This document shows, piece after piece, positions 1,643 to 20,655 of a stretch of DNA of 40,000 nucleotides (within the stretch, counting starts at the first letter, position 1; the number at the start of each line of letters is the position of its first letter). The notes below the pieces were generated by a model. The model worked only from the letters and a program-made list of their open reading frames with translations, had not been told where the DNA came from and searched no databases. The translations under genes were made by a program, and so were the position numbers. The stretch is from Desemzia incerta (GTDB taxonomy: Bacteria > Bacillota > Bacilli > Lactobacillales > Carnobacteriaceae), in contig NZ_FOXW01000002.1 of assembly GCF_900115825.1 (NCBI RefSeq), forward strand, positions 51,795 to 91,794. The letters are read 5' to 3'.

Positions 1643-2248
1643 ATGTCACGCTATACAGGTCCAAGTTGGAAAAAATCTCGTCGTTTAGGTATTTCATTAA
1701 CTGGTACAGGAAAAGAAATCGAACGTCGTCCTTACGCACCAGGAGATCACGGTCCAAACAGCCGTAGAAAATTATCTGAATACGGTTTGCAATTACAAGA
1801 AAAACAAAAATTACGTTTCATGTACGGTGTAAATGAACGTCAATTCTTCAACCTATTCTTAAAAGCTGGTACTATCAAAGAAGGAAAACATGGGGATAAC
1901 TTCATGATCCTTTTAGAACAACGTTTAGATAATGTTGTTTTCCGTTTAGGTTTAGCTACTACTCGTCGTCAAGCACGTCAATTAGTAAACCACGGTCACG
2001 TACTTGTAGATGGCAAACGTGTTGATATTCCATCATACAGCGTTCAACCAGGACAAGTAGTTTCAGTTCGTGAAAAATCTAAAAACATGGAAATCATCAA
2101 AGCAGCTGTTGAATCTGTATTTGGTCGTCCAGAATTCGTTTCTTTTGACGAAGAAAAATTAGAAGGTTCATTAACTCGTCTTCCATTACGTGAAGAATTG
2201 AGTGCTGAAATCGACGAAACTCTTATCGTTGAGTACTACTCAAGATAA
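1643..2248 (+). CDS. rpsD: 30S ribosomal protein S4
   Basis: 201 aa, [16 protein letters not shown]...S4 domain...VEYYSR. Strong SD GGAGGA. Confidence 0.98.
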
Positions 2249-2312
2249 TAAGAATCATTCGACGATCTTTCTTAAAAGCTTGGAAATCTTTCATAGATTT
2301 CCAAGCTTTTTT
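2243..2312. repeat. Left copy of a 70-bp perfect direct repeat (putative attL): last rpsD codon, stop, 3'UTR and terminator
   Basis: AGATAATAAGAATCATTCGACGATCTTTCTTAAAAGCTTGGAAATCTTTCATAGATTTCCAAGCTTTTTT is identical base for base to 5860-5929. Confidence 0.95.
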
Positions 2313-2313
2313 T
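2276..2313 (+). terminator. rpsD intrinsic terminator
   Basis: Perfect 14-bp stem AAGCTTGGAAATCT / AGATTTCCAAGCTT, 5-nt loop, then T7. Confidence 0.85.
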
Positions 2314-3048
2314 ATAGAATTTTTTTAATTTTTAATAACAGTTAGAATGATTTAGGAAAATCAAAATTGATAGTCGCATTCTATTACTCGTCTGTTTTAT
2401 TCGGTTGTTTCAAACCTTTTTCGGTAACCAAAGGTGTCTTCTATATTCATTGAAATTCACGTAGTTCTTTACTACCCAATTAACGATGACAACAACCTGC
2501 CATTATTCTCATATCTATAAATCATATATGAGAGCAACATTTCTCTTAAAAAGTAACAGTGATTTTAACGCCACTTGTTTGCCGCTGAAGTATGAATGTT
2601 AAAAACTTGTTGTTTTTTAACGTTATAGTAGTTATTATAACGTTAAAAGATGTGTCACCGACGAGCGATATATTATTGCAAAAGAAAATACAAATTGAAT
2701 ACTGCAATTTTGTTAACGAAAATATGGAAGCAAAACTCAAAAGAGTCCATTACAAAATGGCTTCATCCTTTTGATTGCTGATTCAAGGGTATATTAGCTA
2801 TATGCAGTACATATAAATTGAAATAAGATAACCTGCTAAAACATTGGAAAAAACCATAGAAATAAGTTGTCAATCTATAAAAAATGCTCTAGTCACTGCA
2901 GCTAACAGTAACTAGAGCTCAACTCCTTGATATGTAGATATAAAAAGTTCAAGGCTAAAAATTTAAGTAAACAAACTGAAAACTGATGAGAACAGTTTTC
3001 AAAGATACGTTTTCCTTATATACATTATACCATATTGGAGGTTTTATT

Positions 3049-3741
3049 TTGAAAAAAATTGTTGGTGGATTATTATTATCACTTTCGGCGGTAACACTAA
3101 TGGCGTGTTCTGGTGGTTTAGATAATACAGGAAAAGAAACATCTAAGGATAGCAACGCAGCTACATCTTCTAGTGCCATTGAACCTGTAGATGAAAACTA
3201 TGTAGAGAAAGGTAAATTGTTAGAAGTTGGACAATGGACTGATGACGAAGGTTATGGCGGTAAGATTACTCTTGCTAAATTAGCTAGTCCAAAAGAAACT
3301 ATTCAAATCTTAGATGGTTTTTCTATATTAATTAATGATATCAAAATACTTGAGTATTCTGAAGTTGATCAAAATTTATTAGAATCAGACGTTTCGGATG
3401 GATTTATCCCAGAGAATTCACTAACTGAAGATGGTTTTTATACTATTCAAATTGACTACGTAGTTACTAATGATACAGATAATGCTTTAGATTTTTATGG
3501 TTTAAACTATATTGTCACTGATCAAGGACAACAAATAGACGTTATGATGGATAACTTAAACTACAGCAATACTACAACTTTCCAACCAAATACTAAAGTC
3601 GAAGATTACATAGTAGCACCAATTAACGCTGAAGCTATGAGTGATTTAAGCAAAGTCACCTTAACTACGTCAGAGTTATGGGATGAAAGTGATGGTTCTC
3701 AATTAGTTGATGAAAAATCTATAGAAGTAAACTTTAATTAA
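3049..3741 (+). CDS. Putative secreted lipoprotein (island cargo)
   Basis: A TTG start at 3049 follows SD GGAGGT and is in frame with track ORF 2986..3741. The N-terminus MKKIVGGLLLSLSAVTLMAC carries lipobox L-M-A-C. The mature part is Ser/Thr/Asp-rich and looks beta-rich. Confidence 0.8.
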   Translation: MKKIVGGLLLSLSAVTLMACSGGLDNTGKETSKDSNAATSSSAIEPVDENYVEKGKLLEVGQWTDDEGYGGKITLAKLASPKETIQILDGFSILINDIKILEYSEVDQNLLESDVSDGFIPENSLTEDGFYTIQIDYVVTNDTDNALDFYGLNYIVTDQGQQIDVMMDNLNYSNTTTFQPNTKVEDYIVAPINAEAMSDLSKVTLTTSELWDESDGSQLVDEKSIEVNFN

Positions 3742-3755
3742 TAACTTAATTACTT

Positions 3756-3804
3756 AAAAAATAAAAATGCAGCACTCTCCCCGACCAAAGGTTGAGTGCT
3801 GCAT
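3756..3804. terminator. Hairpin terminator after the lipoprotein gene, better suited to leftward (minus-strand) transcription
   Basis: Perfect 11-bp stem ATGCAGCACTC (3767-3777) / GAGTGCTGCAT (3794-3804). The plus-strand downstream tract is poor (CATTTGAG). The preceding A-run AAAAAATAAAA gives a good U-tract on the minus strand. Confidence 0.5.
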
Positions 3805-3867
3805 CATTTGAGTTAGATATTGAATAGTACACGTTAATTTTTAAGTTTTAATTCAGGTGTATTCAAA

Positions 3868-4118
3868 ATGAAATTTGGAATTCGAAAGCCTAGTATTAAG
3901 AATCAATAATCTCTAGGACAACAGGAAAAACTAAAAGAGCTATTAAAGTAGAAATAATAACAAATTCCTTCTTTCTGATTCGGAAGTGGCGAAAAAGAGG
4001 TGAACAATATTTACGAAATAATTACATCTATCCTGGTCTGTGGTTTGCTTGCAGGGTGCATAAAATTTATAACAAAATAAAAACAACCCACTCCCCTACT
4101 TTGGACGGTGAGGAGTGA
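3868..4118 (+). pseudogene. Possible frameshifted gene remnant (MKFGIRKPSIKNQ* followed by a 70-codon Met-less frame)
   Basis: The ATG at 3868 opens 13 codons ending at TAA 3907-3909. A frame offset by one nucleotide (codons starting at 3909, overlapping the last base of that TAA) stays open to TGA 4116-4118 (ISRTTGKTKRAIK...). From memory, the lysine-rich N-terminus resembles small conserved hypothetical proteins of Firmicute mobile elements. This is unverified. Confidence 0.25.
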
Positions 4119-4119
4119 G
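4073..4119 (-). terminator. Minus-strand-specific intrinsic terminator just beyond the 5' end of the 227-aa gene
   Basis: On the minus-strand RNA, CUCACUCCU pairs with GGGAGUGGG (9 bp including two G-U pairs) around a 15-nt loop, followed by UUGUUUUUAUUUU. On the plus strand the same positions give C-A mismatches and no U-tract. Confidence 0.5.
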
Positions 4120-4181
4120 ATAAATAACGCATTATGGAATATCTTTGTATTATTATACCATAAGATCGAGGTGAATTTTAA

Positions 4182-4865
4182 GTGTCCAATACTTATTTAA
4201 TTGCAAAAACAAGCAATTTTAATAGAAATTATTCAATAGACCCTAACGTACAAACAAGTCTGCTAGATGCAGATGGATTAGCTATCACAGAAGGAGATCC
4301 GGAAACTAGGATGCAACACTCTACAAATATACAAGTTGATAATAAAGATGTTGCAGTCTACACTATTCATCATGATTATAAAGTGAAAAAAACAGGAAAA
4401 GTTTTTGATAGAATATTTCATTATTACTTAGATCCAAAAGATTTTTATCTTTACTATGTTGAAGCAGAAAGTCTTTTGTTAGTCCGTGCTCAAAAAGATG
4501 TTGCAAAAGATTTTTTAAGTTACTTATCTCAAGAATTTCCTAATTTTAAATATGAAATACTGGAGCCTAATTTAAAAACTATAATGTCTAAAGTCGATGG
4601 GTTAAAAGGAGCCTGGATTTCCGTTGTAAAAGATGGCGTAAATACAGAAGCTTATTTTGGAAGCGAAGTAGAAAATGACGATGATGTTCGTGAGGGAATA
4701 GATAACGAAAAAGCCACGTATATAACCTTCATCTACTTGTTTGCAGACAAAGAAATATATTGTGGCATTTCTAAAAAAGGAAATATTACATTGTATGACG
4801 ATTCTCTAACGGATGATGAAAAACAGGTAATCATCATGCGAATATACGAGCACTTAATTAAATAA
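4182..4865 (+). CDS. Orphan hypothetical protein, 227 aa, soluble and acidic (island gene A)
   Basis: GTG start with SD GAGGTGA 7 nt upstream. The next in-frame Met is at codon 44. There is no TM segment, no P-loop, and no catalytic motif that I recognise. Confidence 0.75.
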   Translation: MSNTYLIAKTSNFNRNYSIDPNVQTSLLDADGLAITEGDPETRMQHSTNIQVDNKDVAVYTIHHDYKVKKTGKVFDRIFHYYLDPKDFYLYYVEAESLLLVRAQKDVAKDFLSYLSQEFPNFKYEILEPNLKTIMSKVDGLKGAWISVVKDGVNTEAYFGSEVENDDDVREGIDNEKATYITFIYLFADKEIYCGISKKGNITLYDDSLTDDEKQVIIMRIYEHLIK

Positions 4866-5633
4866 GTTGTTATTCGATATTGCTATATACTCTTTTGAAA
4901 TAGATTTTATTTGGGCTAAAGAAGTAGAATGAATTGAAATATTATTATTTTTTATAAATACAGTTCCTTCATCAAGCTCATACTTCATATTAAAATTCAA
5001 TTTATCAATTTTTTCAAAATTGTTTAAATATACTTTATAAAATGGATTGAAATCATCCAATTCAATTGATAACAAACATGAAACATCCGTTGGATGGATA
5101 AAGTTAGAACGAATAATTCCTTCTACTTCTGAGTACGTAGTGTATAAATCACTCAAAGAATTTCTATATGATGTTCGATATTTAGAAGATATTCTAACTT
5201 CATATTCATCAGGATTTTCTATTGATAGCACATATTGATTTTGATTTACACTGATTTCATACTTGGTTAAGTTTTTATTATAAGAATTAGGAAATTTAAA
5301 ATCCGAATATTTGCTTGACAGGTCTTTAAAAATATCTTCAGTAAGGTTTTCATTAATCTGATTAACAGAATACACCGTAGTGATTTTCCAAGAGACAGAT
5401 GGATTTGCTATATAAACAATCAGTTTTCTCCAGTTAGTGAATATCCAATTAACGTGTGAATAGCTGTAACTACATATAAAAATAAAGTACCCTATTAATT
5501 CTATAAAAGAAGTTACTCTTGAAGTGTTTGAACTTTCTTTAAATGAATTAATGTAGTTGATACTCAATACAGCGAAGGCTATCCATGCAATAATTACTAA
5601 CACAAGAGGGGTATACTTTTTTATCTTATCCAC
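4854..5633 (-). CDS. Orphan membrane protein with two N-terminal TM helices and a ~190-aa Asn/Ser/Tyr/Lys-rich C-terminal domain (island gene B)
   Basis: The track ORF runs 4854..5645, but GTG 5645 has no SD. The sequence AGGTGGTGA (5647-5639) is itself a strong SD, 5-8 nt before the in-frame GTG at 5633. TM1 is roughly YTPLVLVIIAWIAFAVLSINYI and TM2 roughly FIELIGYFIFICSYSYSHVNWIF. Positive residues flank both helices, which puts the C-terminal domain in the cytoplasm. Confidence 0.75.
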   Translation of the reverse strand: MDKIKKYTPLVLVIIAWIAFAVLSINYINSFKESSNTSRVTSFIELIGYFIFICSYSYSHVNWIFTNWRKLIVYIANPSVSWKITTVYSVNQINENLTEDIFKDLSSKYSDFKFPNSYNKNLTKYEISVNQNQYVLSIENPDEYEVRISSKYRTSYRNSLSDLYTTYSEVEGIIRSNFIHPTDVSCLLSIELDDFNPFYKVYLNNFEKIDKLNFNMKYELDEGTVFIKNNNISIHSTSLAQIKSISKEYIAISNNNLFN

Positions 5634-5655
5634 CCATATCACCACCTATATTTAC

Positions 5656-5683
5656 ATTATACACAAAAAGGAACATATGTTCT
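5656..5683 (-). promoter_or_regulatory. Extended -10 promoter of gene B overlapped by a LexA (Cheo) box
   Basis: The minus strand reads GGTAGAACATATGTTCCTTTTTGTGTATAATG. The extended -10 TGTGTATAAT is at 5665-5656. GAACATATGTTC (5682-5671) matches the Firmicute LexA consensus CGAACATATGTTCG in all 12 core positions and covers the -35 region. Confidence 0.55.
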
Positions 5684-5859
5684 ACCTTAACTATTTATTA
5701 GAGTAGAACGATTTTTAATCTACTGGCCTACGTTAAATTTTTTCTCATAGCTCTTTTTGTCGACTAATAATATCACACTTAAGGATGTGATAACAAATCC
5801 TTTCTAGATTCCCATCCGGCAATCTGTAAGGAATGAATTACGAGTACGACATTGAAACC

Positions 5860-5929
5860 AGATAATAAGAATCATTCGACGATCTTTCTTAAAAGCTTGG
5901 AAATCTTTCATAGATTTCCAAGCTTTTTT
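5860..5929. repeat. Right copy of the 70-bp perfect direct repeat (putative attR)
   Basis: Identical to 2243-2312 at all 70 positions (checked base by base). Confidence 0.95.
5893..5929 (+). terminator. Duplicated copy of the rpsD terminator hairpin
   Basis: It has the same 14-bp stem as 2276-2308, followed by T6. It would stop rightward transcription leaving the island before yueI. Confidence 0.6.
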
Positions 5930-6048: not shown

Positions 6049-6495
6049 ATGGTCAATAAAGATGCCAATGATTACTTGCAAAAAGGACAATATGGTGTTA
6101 AACAAACGTTGATTTCAGAACGAAAAGAATTCATGGGCAGTTTACGAGAAAGAGTTTATTTGACTGCACGACTAGAGCAGCTTTCCCAAGAGAATGCACT
6201 TCAAGCTTTCCAAGATGAATTTCAAAAACATCCAGATGGCCATTTGCTGTTGAATGGTACATTTGGTATGAGTTTCTTTGACGGCTATATCAAAGAAAGT
6301 AAACATATGGGGATTCCATTCACTCTAATAGCCAATGAATATGCACAAACCACCCCTTATGCAATCATTTATACTGCTTCGACTGCTGTAGATGAACCCA
6401 TTATTGACCTTGCCGAGAAATACCCTCTTCCTCTAAAGAGTGAGCCTCAACAAAAAAGTCAGAAAAAGTCATTCTTTAAACGCTTTTTCTCCTAA
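6049..6495 (+). CDS. YueI-like protein (DUF1694 family)
   Basis: ATG 6049 follows SD GAGGTG; the track ORF starts 18 nt earlier at a TTG. The N-terminal pattern DYLQKGQYG...ERKEFMGSLRERV is typical of YueI/DUF1694 proteins. Confidence 0.7.
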   Translation: MVNKDANDYLQKGQYGVKQTLISERKEFMGSLRERVYLTARLEQLSQENALQAFQDEFQKHPDGHLLLNGTFGMSFFDGYIKESKHMGIPFTLIANEYAQTTPYAIIYTASTAVDEPIIDLAEKYPLPLKSEPQQKSQKKSFFKRFFS

Positions 6496-11856: not shown

Positions 11857-14649
11857 CTATTCTGCTTCTGTTTCAGGTATTAACGCTTCTGGATAGTGTT
11901 CCTTCACGATATGGTAGCAACGACCACAAAGTGTTGGAGCCTCCTCAAATGATCCCACTTCTTCACTGACGATGCGGCATCTTTCACACGTCTCTCCGTG
12001 TGCATGTTCAATAGAAACAGCTACATCTGCAAATTTATGAGCTGATTCAGGTGCTGACTCGTAATCACCAGCAATTTCTAAATCAGAAACGATCAATAAT
12101 TGCCCAATATTTGCGTCTAAACTATTCAACAACTCTTTTACTTCTGCTGTTGGGTAAAGAGTTACTTTTGCTTCAAATGACTTACCAATGATTTTTTCAT
12201 TACGTGCTTCTTCCAAAGCTTTCAATACTTCATCTCGCACATTCATGAATGCTTTCCAATCTTTTAACACTTCTTCTTGATTGTTGAAACGTTCTACTTC
12301 AGGTAATTCTGCCAATTGAGCAAATTCTTCGTCTTCTTTAAGGAGTTTCCAAATCTCTTCACTAGTATGCGGAAGGATTGGTGTCAATAATTTTGTCATC
12401 TTCACTAAGATATCGTAAAAGACTGTTTGCATAGCACGACGATCGTGTCCATCTTCTAAGTCGATGTAAACAATATCTTTAGCAATATCTAAATAGAATT
12501 GAGACAAATCAACTGTACAGAAGTTCATTACTGTTTGGTAAATCCCCTTGAAATCATACGTTTCATAAGAATGTTTGATTTTTTCTACGATTTGGTTGAA
12601 ACGAATCAACATATATTGGTCTAAAGCATTCAACTCTTCGTAAGCAACGGCATTGACTGCAGGATCAAAATCAGATGTATTAGCCATTAAGAAACGCATC
12701 GTGTTACGTATTTTACGGTAACCTTCAGATACTTGTTTCAAAATATCATCTGAGACGCGCACATCGTATTCGTAATCAACGCTTGAAACCCACAAACGAA
12801 TAATATCTGCACCCATTTGTTTGATTACTTTATTTGGAACAATAACATTTCCGATAGACTTACTCATCTTACGGCCTTCTCCATCCATTACGAAACCTTG
12901 AGAAAGGACGCTTCTGTAAGGAGCTTCTTCGTTAACCGCCACAGAGGTTGTCAAACTAGAGTTAAACCAGCCTCGGTATTGATCTGAGCCTTCTAGATAC
13001 ATGTCTGCTGGGAATGATAACTCTGGACGAGTTTTCAATACACCTGCATGAGATGATCCTGAGTCAAACCATACATCCATGATATCTGTTTCTTTAGTAA
13101 ATTCATTATTTGGACTAGCTGGATGCGTAAAGCCTTCTGGTAATAAATCTTTTGCTTCCCGTTCAAACCACACATTCGATCCATGCTCACTCACTAATGA
13201 AGCCACATGATCAATGGTTTCTGGAGTAATAATCGGTTCGCCATTTTCAGCATAGAAAATCGGCAGAGGCACGCCCCATACACGTTGACGTGAAATAACC
13301 CAATCACCGCGGTCTCGAACCATATTGTACAATCTTGGTTTTCCTGATGGATGCAACCACGTTACATCATTTTCAATAGCATCTAAAATTTGTTGACGGA
13401 ATTTATCGATTGAAGCAAACCATTGAGGTGTTGCTCTAAAAATAACTGGTTTTTTTGTTCTCCAGTCATGAGGGTAGCTATGTGTAAAGAAGCTCATTTT
13501 CAACAAGTTTCCTTTTTCTTCAAGCCATTCCGTAATTTGTTTGTTGGCAGTATCATAGAAAACACCTTCTAAGCCTGGTGCTTCATCAGTGAAACATCCT
13601 TTATCATCAATAGGAGAAAGAACACCTAGTTTGTATTTTTGACCTGCAATATAGTCATCTTCCCCGTGTCCAGGAGCCGTGTGAACTAAACCAGTACCGG
13701 CTTCTAGTGTAACGTGATCTCCCACAATTACTAGAGATGTACGATCATACAATGGATGTTGTGCTGTCATCAATTCTAAGTCTTTTCCGTTCACTTCAGA
13801 TACGGTTTCAACATTTTCCCAACCTAATGTGGCTGCTACATCGTTTACTAAGTCTTTAGCCAATACATATTTTTTGCCATCAACTTCAACTACAGAGTAC
13901 ACATAATCTGCATTCACAGCGATAGCTAAGTTTGCTGGAATCGTCCATGGTGTAGTTGTCCAGATCACGAATGATGTGTCACCATTTAAAATTCCTTTTC
14001 CGTCAACAACTGGGAAAGAAACATAGATACTTGGTGATTTAACATCTTGGTATTCAATTTCAGCTTCAGCTAATGAAGATTCACTAGATGGTGACCAGTA
14101 AATAGGTTTCAAACCTTTATAGATGTATCCTTTTTCCGCCATCTGTCCGAATAAACGAATTTGTTGTTCTTCAAATTTAGGATCTAGAGTCACATAAGGA
14201 TTGTCCCAATCACCAGCTACTCCAAGACGTTTAAAATCTTCTCTTTGTTGGTTGATTTGTTTCCAAGCATACTCCTCACAAATCTTGCGGAATTCTGCTT
14301 CCGACATTTCTTTCCGTTTCACACCGCTGTTTGTGACAGCTTGTTCAATAGGCAGTCCATGTGTATCCCATCCAGGAACGTAAGGAGAACGGAAACCGCT
14401 CATGCTTTTTGATCGGATGATAATATCTTTTGTAATTTTGTTTAAAGCGTGACCCATATGGATATCGCCGTTTGCATATGGAGGTCCATCATGCAAGATA
14501 AAAGTTGGTTTATCTGAGTTTTTTTCTTGACGTTTTTCATATACACCAGCATCTTTCCACTCTTGTTGCCATTCCACTTCTCGTACTGGCAAGTTTCCTC
14601 GCATTTTGAATTTAGTATTTCCTAAATTCAATGTTTCTTTCATTTTCAT
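11857..14649 (-). CDS. ileS: Isoleucine--tRNA ligase
   Basis: Start [21 protein letters not shown] at 14649 after SD AGAGGGG. HIGH (HMGH) and KMSKS motifs are present, with a C-terminal Zn-finger CERCR...CGRC. The 41-codon upstream extension in the track ORF runs through the T-box leader. Confidence 0.98.
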
Positions 14650-14720
14650 TGTAAGAATTCCCCTCTTCTTTGTTTTTCCTTGTTTCCTTTGATCAACACC
14701 ATTGCCTAACTTTTGGAGCA

Positions 14721-14962
14721 TAAAAAAAAGACCTCCTCCCAAAAGGGACGAAATCTTCGTGGTACCACCCATAGTTCAAGAAAAGAGTTCCCTCTTTTCT
14801 CCTCTAGTAATTGTTAACGCCAATCACACGATTGATTCTACTCCTAGTTCGAATCAATACTCATGGAGGATCTTACGACAGCAGGGACTTGTTAGACTTA
14901 CACTATCTCTAACTCGCTGAAAAGTATACTTACTGTCGCTTTCTGTTCCAATCTTCGCTATT
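14721..14962 (-). promoter_or_regulatory. T-box riboswitch leader of ileS (Ile specifier AUC)
   Basis: The minus strand reads AACTATGGGTGGTACCACGAAGATTTCGTCCCTTTTGGGAGGAGGTCTTTTTTTT. It holds the conserved T-box motif and an alternative terminator helix GATTTCGTCCC/GGGAGGAGGTC followed by U8. Stem I elements AGCGAAGA and AGAGATAGTG lie upstream. AUC at 14871-14869 sits in an internal loop between helices CGACAG/CUGUCG and UGGA/UCCA. Confidence 0.85.
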
Positions 14963-14980
14963 CATTATTCAAATGGTTGA

Positions 14981-19326: not shown

Positions 19327-20655
19327 TTAATCAAAGAAGTTATTGAACATTTTTTTCATTTTTGAAAACATGCTTTCTTCTTGGTTCTTTTGCTTTTTAA
19401 CTACTTGTTTCTTTTCAACATATTCCCCTGCATCTTCTTCTGCATACATTGGAACAACTGTCTGTTCTTGTGAAAAAGAAGGATTTTGATTGAATCCTGT
19501 TGCAGTTTGGTTGGCAATCTTTTGAATATCATTTAGTTTTGCTTGATATTCGATCAACCCAATACCGGTTGTAAAGGAAGGATATCTGATTCCCATATGA
19601 TCTGGAATGTATAATTTTACATTCACTTCAAATATCTCTTTTGCCAATTCTACCATACCTGGTATAGAAGATGCTCCTCCAGTTAAAACGATACCCCCAG
19701 GCAGCTCTCTAGCTCTGACTGAGTCCAACTCTTCTTTTATAGTCTCAAATATTTGGACCAGACGAGCTTCTATAATCTCAGATAAATACAATTCATTCAC
19801 TTTTACTGGTTCTGTTTTACCGACCACTTCGACCGGGAAGACCTCATCCTCTGAAGCTTCAAGAGAAGTAGCATAACCAAAGTCACGCTTTATTTTTTCG
19901 GCATTCTCTAAGCTTGTATTCAATACAATGGAAATATCTTTTGTGACATATTCTCCACCTTCAGGATCAACAAATGAAAACTTCAATTGATTGTCATGAA
20001 TAACTGAAGCAGCAGTTTGGCCGCCTCCCATGTCAATCAATATCGTTCCAAAATCTCTTTCACCGCTTGACATACTTACTTTACTGGCTGCCAAAGGCTG
20101 GAGAACAATGTTTTCAATGTTTAATCCCGCTTTTTCCACACAACGTTTAATGTTATGTACAATGGTTTTAGGTCCAGTGATCATTGTGGCATGCATTTCA
20201 AGTCTGACACCGATCATTCCCCTAGGATCTTTTATACCATCAAATCCATCTACGATAAACTCTTCTGGAATAATAGCCAATATTTCACGTTCTGGAGGAA
20301 CGGATTTGACCATTGCTGCGCTGATCGTATTTCGTACATCTTCGTCTGTAATTTCTTTATTTTCACCTGATACTGCAATCATTCCATGACAGGTTTCAAT
20401 TTCTGTAGATGTACTTTGAGTTCCTACGATAACGTTGCGAATATCAACATTAGCTTTTTTTTCTGCTTGTTTAATCGCTTTCTTCACAGATTCCACAGTT
20501 TTATCGATATCCACTATGATACCTCTGCTTAGACCTTCAGATTTTTCATTTCCAACTCCAATAATATTCATTTGTCCATTAATATACTCGGCTACAACAA
20601 CCTTTATTGAAGTGGTTCCAATATCTAAACTAACATACATCTCAGAATTCCTCAT
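19327..20655 (-). CDS. ftsA: Cell division protein FtsA
   Basis: ATG 20655 (MRNSEMYVSLDIGTTSIKVVV) lies 9 nt after SD AGGAGG. Actin-like ATPase fold motifs. The 10-codon track extension would include the SD. Confidence 0.97.
   Translation of the reverse strand: MRNSEMYVSLDIGTTSIKVVVAEYINGQMNIIGVGNEKSEGLSRGIIVDIDKTVESVKKAIKQAEKKANVDIRNVIVGTQSTSTEIETCHGMIAVSGENKEITDEDVRNTISAAMVKSVPPEREILAIIPEEFIVDGFDGIKDPRGMIGVRLEMHATMITGPKTIVHNIKRCVEKAGLNIENIVLQPLAASKVSMSSGERDFGTILIDMGGGQTAASVIHDNQLKFSFVDPEGGEYVTKDISIVLNTSLENAEKIKRDFGYATSLEASEDEVFPVEVVGKTEPVKVNELYLSEIIEARLVQIFETIKEELDSVRARELPGGIVLTGGASSIPGMVELAKEIFEVNVKLYIPDHMGIRYPSFTTGIGLIEYQAKLNDIQKIANQTATGFNQNPSFSQEQTVVPMYAEEDAGEYVEKKQVVKKQKNQEESMFSKMKKMFNNFFD

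Follow-up and report, generated by a model that had tools for sequence, protein, structure and literature searches.

A probable grounded prophage remnant flanked by a duplicated rpsD 3' end in Desemzia incerta

Introduction

Why should 3.5 kb of DNA immediately downstream of a ribosomal-protein gene be flanked on both sides by the same copy of that gene's end? The question is raised by a 40,000-nt stretch of Desemzia incerta (Carnobacteriaceae; assembly GCF_900115825.1, contig NZ_FOXW01000002.1, positions 51,795 to 91,794 of the forward strand), hereafter called the window, in which an island at 2243-5929 lies between two direct repeats of the 3' end of rpsD. A preliminary description, made from the letters alone, had taken the duplication for the left and right attachment (att) sites, attL and attR, of a site-specific integration, and the DNA between them for either a decayed element or a cassette mobilised in trans. 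In this study, we examined the repeat, the content of the island and the state of the same site in conspecific contigs. The island is probably a grounded prophage remnant, that is, an immobilised and decayed one.

Results

The rpsD 3' end is duplicated around the island

Repeat finding detected a single 70-nt family in the window, whose two copies (2243-2312 and 5860-5929, forward strand) are 100% identical and spaced 3617 bp apart; a 46-nt part of the repeat occurs exactly twice in the 40 kb and in none of 100 shuffles. Since the rpsD open reading frame (ORF) spans 1643-2248 on the forward strand (ribosomal protein S4, 201 aa; Pfam Ribosomal_S4 at 4e-26 and S4 at 9e-22), the left, attL-like copy begins at its last sense codon, AGA (2243-2245), followed by the stop codon TAA (2246-2248). 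The right part of each copy holds the full rpsD intrinsic terminator, an inverted repeat with a 16-bp stem and a T run (2274-2310 in the left copy; 5891-5927 in the attR-like right copy, which scored terminator-like), and the repeat stops exactly where the T run ends. Repeat finding, the ORF and the hairpin thus agree with the initial observation of 70 identical positions from the last rpsD codon through the terminator. The target gene is intact despite the insertion and the same in empty and occupied strains, and the identical protein is present in 78 index blocks. On the other side, the chromosomal flank begins with a DUF1694 (yueI-like) gene (6049-6495, forward strand; Pfam DUF1694 at 2.8e-25). 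The G+C fraction of the interior (2313-5859, 3547 bp) is 0.303 versus about 0.36 in both flanks; the dip is real, although the earlier wording "far more AT-rich" overstated it.

The same repeat-island-repeat structure is present in an ENA metagenome contig (L007). In addition, two Logan short-read contigs (L023 and L024) of 3607 bp consist of the 3547 unique bases plus 30 bp of repeat per end, opening with the last 30 bp of the repeat and closing with its first 30 bp, as would be explained if an assembler with k=31 broke at the 70-bp repeat, which is our assumption. These independent matches remove the initial worry that the duplication might be an assembly artefact. In total, the island was found in at least six contigs, whose copies differ by 0-6 single bases. 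The 70 bp are polymorphic between strains, with two differences in L002 and three in L009. In the latter (19490-19559, compared with window 5860-5929), the usual terminator loop, TCTTTCATAGA, is replaced by its reverse complement, TCTATGAAAGA; this change covers all three differences within the 70 bp and resembles a loop inversion. An assembly artefact, or a transposon with a target-site duplication, can be set aside with near certainty, as nothing beyond the existence of the direct repeat speaks for either: independent assemblies of different samples agree, short-read contigs break exactly at the repeat borders, 70 bp is far longer than the target duplications made by transposases, the island has no transposase, and no terminal inverted repeats were seen on reading its two ends or among the listed repeat pairs.

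The rpsD site is empty or differently occupied in conspecific contigs

Conspecific contigs were collected by exact look-up of the rpsD and DUF1694 proteins in public assemblies, and four states of the junction were distinguished among them: empty, the same island, remnants of about 9 kb, and prophages. The empty site (rpsD, one 70-bp copy, DUF1694 gene) is the commonest (L001-L004, L006, L008, L010, L014-L016, L019, L020 and L029), with flanks 99.3-99.7% identical to the window (99.5-99.7% in L029, a JGI contig), and its single copy, e.g. in L001, is the same as the left copy of the window. A scan of JGI metagenomes for the terminator yielded one contig only, in which the site is empty. The same island of about 3.6 kb occupies the site in L007. 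In two contigs (L005 and L009), remnants of about 9 kb encode a lysin, a holin and an integrase fragment of 156 aa. They represent another kind of decayed prophage and show that prophages have decayed at rpsD repeatedly and independently. Two others (L017 and L018) carry prophages with a 382-aa tyrosine integrase. Empty junctions and different elements at one site bear out the reading of the duplicated 3' end as attL and attR of an integration site, and they supply the empty rpsD-70 bp-DUF1694 junction that the preliminary description proposed to look for. In all four integrase-bearing relatives (L005, L009, L017 and L018), the integrase adjoins the DUF1694 gene, which is the attR end in the orientation of the window. 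The 670 bp beside attL, once regarded as the usual place of an int gene, is therefore not that place in these phages; this arm has a repressor pseudogene instead.

Two further observations were made on these contigs. The remnant at 10626-19490 of L005 / L009 also encodes a GDSL lipase-domain protein and a SocA_Panacea-domain protein. In assembly GCA_020882875.1 (L003 / L011), where the rpsD site is empty, a group II intron reverse transcriptase and two insertion sequence (IS)-type transposase genes stand among the housekeeping genes surrounding rpsD, and a GNAT gene is shortened to 133 aa.

The island holds phage remnants and no integrase

The island contains three intact ORFs, none of them structural, lytic or replicative, and their proteins have no Pfam, NCBIfam or PADLOC family match. 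Its left end is a noncoding arm, termed Y (2313-2663), for which no homolog was found in any fetched locus. The arm includes two AT-rich palindromes at 2575-2648, just upstream of a repressor remnant, with a perfect 13-bp inverted repeat, TTTTAACGTTATA(8)TATAACGTTAAAA; they could be an old operator or a feature of an attP (phage att site) arm. Next follows a CI-like repressor pseudogene (2664-2867, forward strand), which retains a C-terminal S24-peptidase domain with three in-frame stops. By tblastn, it aligns to residues 140-208 of the L018 repressor (38% identity over 72 residues, including an EAxLKRV motif; E 3e-6). By blastn, 2812-2918 is shared at 79% with the end of the L017 repressor gene and the hairpin downstream of it (2886-2918 in the window).

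The first intact ORF (3049-3741, forward strand) encodes a 230-aa lipoprotein with a signal peptide and the lipobox LMAC, read from a TTG start after GGAGG. It matches phrog_3727 (6.5e-21), is named DUF4352 in one source, and is a lysogeny-module accessory gene: a 71% homolog in L031 lies downstream of an intact cro/cI pair with one 101-aa ORF between, and a 36% homolog in Listeria phage vB_LmoS_P7 lies directly upstream of the integrase. Behind it come a hairpin with the conserved loop motif CACTCTCCCCGACCAAAG (3767-3804), which recurs at cassette borders of related elements, and a decayed 68-aa ORF (3854-3959, forward strand; blastn 82%, tblastn in two frames at E 1e-5) whose counterpart in L017 and L018 also follows the lipoprotein or accessory gene.

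Copies of the CACTCTCCCCGACCAAAG-loop hairpin were seen at 3767-3804 and, as an inverted variant, at 4084-4120 of the window, and at L026 8716-8762, L031 about 3392-3430, L034 1578-1624 and L018 6596-6650. They border accessory-gene cassettes in unrelated prophage fragments, and their stems vary in sequence yet stay paired. Because the inspected copies have A-rich sequence on the 5' side and 3' tails that are not T-rich, the hairpin is not a plain intrinsic terminator on this strand; it may be a cassette boundary mark or a terminator of the opposite strand.

At the right end, the noncoding arm X (5646-5859), which is the upstream region of the second cargo gene described below, occupies the place where an integrase is expected, and the integrase is absent. 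Six-frame translations of all noncoding parts of the island revealed no recombinase, excisionase or integrase remnant, and the island has no relaxase or transfer gene or remnant thereof. In the 2313-2985 region, which had been proposed for a search for recombinase remnants, the CI/S24 pseudogene was found instead. The statement that the island has no integrase, excisionase, relaxase or replication gene thus holds, as none of its three intact ORFs belongs to such a family. A 35-aa ORF across the junction of X and the right repeat was found by exact look-up in the same contig only.

A convergent gene pair occupies an exchangeable cargo slot

The stretch at 4076-4171, with its hairpin at 4084-4120, is the conserved left flank of a cargo slot. 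By blastn it is 89% identical to L018 6601-6646 and 76% identical to L026 7094-7188, and its counterpart precedes a SIR2 gene in L018 and a homolog of the window's gene pair in L026. In the window, the slot holds two convergent genes with a 12-bp overlap: gene 1 (4182-4865, forward strand) encodes 227 aa, and gene 2 (4854-5633, reverse strand) encodes 259 aa from a GTG start after AGGTGGTGA. The predicted structure of the 227-aa protein (mean predicted local distance difference test score, pLDDT, 76.5) suggests an RdgC-like fold, with a Foldseek match to RdgC (PDB 2owl) at E 2e-6 and a template modelling (TM) score of 0.49, and matches to phage RdgC-like proteins at TM about 0.5, up to 0.53. 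RdgC is a recombination-associated DNA-binding protein of about 300 aa. At the sequence level, no RdgC membership of the 227-aa protein was found, it has no Pfam match, and no RdgC came up when PDB sequences were searched with a profile. In the model of the 259-aa protein (pLDDT 68), long N-terminal helices, probably membrane-spanning, are predicted beside an alpha/beta domain; its fold search gave weak matches only (TM < 0.33).

The ratio of nonsynonymous to synonymous substitution rates (dN/dS) is 0.10-0.15 for the 227-aa gene and 0.19-0.27 for the 259-aa gene, which indicates that the pair is under purifying selection. The two genes are always together and convergent in their homologs (L026, L027 and L034). 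A protein named from Desemzia incerta matches the 227-aa protein at 100% identity, in keeping with the species. The pair is rare in a word-indexed search (5 and 3 clusters), and a profile search gives at least 141 cluster representatives for the 227-aa family. Ten sampled relatives of the 227-aa protein have no Pfam match over the homologous region and no PADLOC match, and tblastn of this protein against phages returned nothing. In L034, the gene next to a 65% homolog of the pair, immediately after it, encodes a 379-aa tyrosine integrase; in L018, the SIR2 protein in the slot matches the PADLOC candidate PDC-S25 (5.5e-198); in L026, a truncated S24 peptidase precedes the pair, which has HerA+SIR2 and an HNH gene as neighbours. 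This last locus (L026 4951-13153, ENA ERZ25039478) belongs to another organism and clusters the pair with DUF2321, the truncated S24 peptidase, HNH, an IstB fragment and HerA+SIR2, between an ABC transporter and the suf operon; it looks like a defence island on a dead prophage.

Going by their position and neighbours, the retained genes may act in phage exclusion or defence. We regard it as possible, though on the whole doubtful, that the pair at 4182-5633 is an undescribed prophage-borne anti-phage system in an exchangeable slot between repressor and integrase, and that the remnant has been domesticated by its host.

Resident prophages use the same site with another att core

The elements in L005, L009, L017 and L018, here called type A, have an att repeat that differs from the 70 bp. 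It consists of the last rpsD codons, GTTGA(G/A)TACTACTCAAGATAATAAG, and corresponds to a 25-bp core, GTTGAGTACTACTCAAGATAATAAG, at window 2228-2252 (forward strand), of which 19 bp (2234-2252) are the same in attB (the bacterial att site) and attP. In type A attL, a phage-supplied terminator stands where the host one was. An IMG/VR viral contig (L021) carries the attP uninterrupted, in the order integrase 3' end, GTTGAATACTACTCAAGATAATAAG core, the phage's diverged terminator and attL-adjacent sequence; this makes the end of rpsD a genuine phage attB in this species. Although diverged, the terminators of phage and host are homologous (a local alignment score reached by 0/1000 shuffles); type A phage matches the host on the rpsD side and diverges on the terminator side.

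The 70-bp repeat overlaps the 25-bp core by 10 bp only, AGATAATAAG, and extends rightwards from there. Joined to the rpsD end, the left repeat copy gives an attB that is whole and unaltered, and GTTGAATACTACTCA, the leftmost 15 bp of the type A core, is missing from the right copy. If both integrases were related, the 10-bp overlap AGATAATAAG would be the place of strand exchange. Between the island arms and the type A attP arms, k-mer sharing is at chance level and no common arm-type sites were found.

A diverged rpsD 3' end that a MAFFT alignment seemed to place in the X arm was not significant (248/1000 shuffles) and was dropped. Psychrobacillus phage Spoks and Enterococcus phage SEsuP-1 carry the closest integrase relatives in GenBank, and no rpsD-like sequence was seen by eye in their attP regions; a scan of a genome collection with the L017 integrase gave one uninformative match (26% identity) in Streptococcus oralis.

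Discussion

Origin of the island

In these phages, the usual lysogeny-module end runs from repressor through lipoprotein, small ORF and cargo to integrase and att site, and the window island keeps that order, except that the integrase and two-thirds of the repressor, from its start, are gone. The CI pseudogene, the decayed 68-aa ORF and this gene order favour a decayed element. We therefore consider 2243-5929 to be, with good probability, the remnant of a temperate phage that would have entered as a circle, in the Campbell manner, at the rpsD 3' end. Its ancestral attP would have held a host copy running from AGATAATAAG, at the last rpsD codon and the stop, through the terminator; with such an attP, integration would have left rpsD and its terminator intact and duplicated the 70 bp. 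Because no intact element with the island's arms was found, this attP is reconstructed rather than seen. Later, a left-side deletion that ended halfway into the repressor gene would have taken the lytic, structural and replication genes, and a right-side deletion the integrase. What is left would be an accessory block of the lysogeny module, normally expressed from the prophage: the lipoprotein gene and the two-gene cargo in its exchangeable slot. The two terminator copies would insulate this block from rpsD and the DUF1694 gene, and selection may keep its genes, for the lipoprotein and for the RdgC-fold protein with its membrane partner, as protection against other phages, with the lipoprotein acting by surface exclusion.

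Several points weigh against this history. No scan returned an intact relative with the 70-bp att type or with the X and Y arms: the island DNA had no match among GenBank phages in a distant-mode blastn search, the X-junction and 70-bp patterns had none in IMG/VR, and alignment- and protein-based scans of IMG/VR found neither the pair nor the lipoprotein. The resident prophages have a different identity block, 25 bp to the left with only the 10-bp overlap with the 70-bp repeat; a simple deletion in one of the phages observed here could not have produced the island. Two separate deletions are required, both of which spared the att copies, and no origin can be recognised for the left 351 bp (2313-2663). 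As for function, the lipoprotein and the gene pair have no PADLOC match, the case for a defence role comes solely from position and neighbours, and fold similarity ranges from moderate (TM about 0.5) to weak.

A different origin of the repeat itself deserves attention, although we judge it unlikely. Here, the island would still be a prophage remnant, but the 70 bp would have been duplicated by homologous recombination: a prophage, or part of one, would have captured the host terminator on imprecise or homeologous excision, for example when the phage's diverged terminator at attL recombined with the host terminator at attR. One RecA crossover inside the 70 bp would then have returned the element to the chromosome, and the repeat edges would be limits of homology or deletion endpoints rather than an integrase core. 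The diverged host-terminator homolog in type A attP offers a substrate for such exchange, the repeat is the host allele and stops exactly at the end of the terminator T run, and the 205 bp that separate the pair from int in L034 come close in length to the 214-bp X arm, so that the left edge of the repeat could be the endpoint of the deletion that removed int. However, exact matches between phage and host terminators are short (about 8 bp) and poor for RecA, and no intermediate form was found. Long attP-attB identities also occur in ordinary tyrosine-recombinase systems.

Less probable again is a living cassette without integrase, similar to a cis-mobilizable element (CIME) or a minimal satellite, whose functional attL and attR are moved in trans by the integrase of an rpsD-targeting phage. 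Both repeat copies are perfect even though the 70 bp vary between strains (L002 and L009), at least six contigs contain the island, its copies differing by up to six single bases, the left copy with the rpsD end gives the resident phages a full attB, and integrase-bearing phages use the same locus. Yet a repressor pseudogene and a decayed ORF would be junk in a streamlined cassette, and attR is missing GTTGAATACTACTCA from the left of the type A core. The breaks of the short-read contigs at both edges of the repeat are what an integrated form should produce. Among the contigs found, there is no other cargo between the same repeats, an occurrence that the preliminary description had proposed to look for, and no island copy elsewhere. 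Of the two alternatives offered there, decay gains from the phage pseudogenes and gene order. Nothing was found in favour of mobilisation in trans, and it loses from arm k-mers shared with type A attP at chance level only.

The biology of the site is ordinary: the 3' end of a ribosomal-protein gene serves as a phage attachment site, and strains carry prophages in varied states of decay. Desemzia incerta adds a case outside Streptococcus of rpsD as a prophage attB, documented by the empty site, attP, attL/attR and prophages at several stages of decay. Two att designs that share only AGATAATAAG at one attB suggest where strands are exchanged and how the blocks of attP-attB identity drift. Moreover, the cargo slot is exchangeable: one phage has a SIR2 defence candidate in it and the window a conserved pair that lacks annotation, which makes this pair a cheap candidate for phage resistance.

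The wider window

Away from the island, a T-box leader (Rfam RF00230, 100 bits) lies at 14741-14964 on the reverse strand, upstream of a 971-aa ORF (11857-14772) that, by synteny, is probably a tRNA-synthetase (ileS-like) gene. The remainder of the window, judged by its ORF sizes and synteny, resembles a cluster of cell-division and cell-wall genes. The 40-kb window contains no tRNA genes.

Comparison with known systems

The rpsD 3' end is a published integration site in Streptococcus agalactiae, used by SagCI (PMC4129442) and by PICI1 and PICI2 (PMC7487436). Accordingly, the rpsD hotspot, which the preliminary description gave as possibly undescribed, is not new as a kind, though it has not been described for Desemzia. 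Compared by published description, the window island shares with these elements the target gene, the same gene end and the intactness of the essential gene. They are phage-inducible islands of about 15 kb with a 398-aa integrase, a primase and regulatory genes (PMC4129442, PMC7487436), whereas the window island lacks all three kinds of gene and its host belongs to another family, the Carnobacteriaceae. Phage-inducible chromosomal islands (PICIs) and phage satellites in general are recognised by their own integrase, a regulatory switch, primase or replication genes, packaging interference and a size of about 10-15 kb; at 3.5 kb and with its three ORFs, the island does not belong to this class. 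As in tyrosine-recombinase integration at gene 3' ends, the gene end supplied by the element keeps the gene intact at the rpsD repeat. Such elements carry the integrase beside one att site, where it is present in L017, L018 and L034, cut short in L005 and L009, and absent from the window island.

CIMEs have lost integration and transfer genes and kept attL and attR (PMC6323972). The island resembles them as integrase-less DNA between att-type repeats at a site used by integrase-bearing elements, and fits only the negative half of the definition, the loss of integration and transfer genes. Catalogued CIMEs ride on integrative and conjugative elements (PMC6323972), whereas the island is phage-derived and has pseudogenes. 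As to its att sites, the left copy is a full attB, but the right copy is without the left 15 bp of the type A core and the arms share nothing with type A arms; no tandem array of phage and island was present among the contigs read.

For known anti-phage systems, PADLOC-DB 2.0 has no profile that matches any of the three island proteins. A closer likeness is to the accessory (moron) or defence slots between repressor and integrase of Firmicutes temperate phages, such as those holding the Ltp lipoprotein in L017 and the SIR2 protein PDC-S25 in L018: position and orientation are the same, the flanks are conserved, the cargo is exchangeable and a lipoprotein gene follows the repressor. The difference lies in the cargo, as the 227-aa RdgC-fold protein and the 259-aa membrane protein of the island match no described defence or exclusion system.

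The best likeness is to cryptic or grounded prophages, which are defective remnants kept in bacterial chromosomes (PMC6379469). The island differs from these in being very small (3.5 kb), in that both att copies are perfect, and in its 70-bp repeat of stop codon and terminator compared with the 25-bp core of the prophages at the site. It agrees with them in having att-type repeats at a phage site, in the loss of integrase and lytic genes, in the few accessory genes retained under purifying selection, and in the conspecific strains whose site is empty or holds fuller prophages. The four features by which a defective prophage is recognised are all seen here: a phage site bounded by att repeats, phage genes and pseudogenes in phage order, no lytic modules, and an empty site in relatives.

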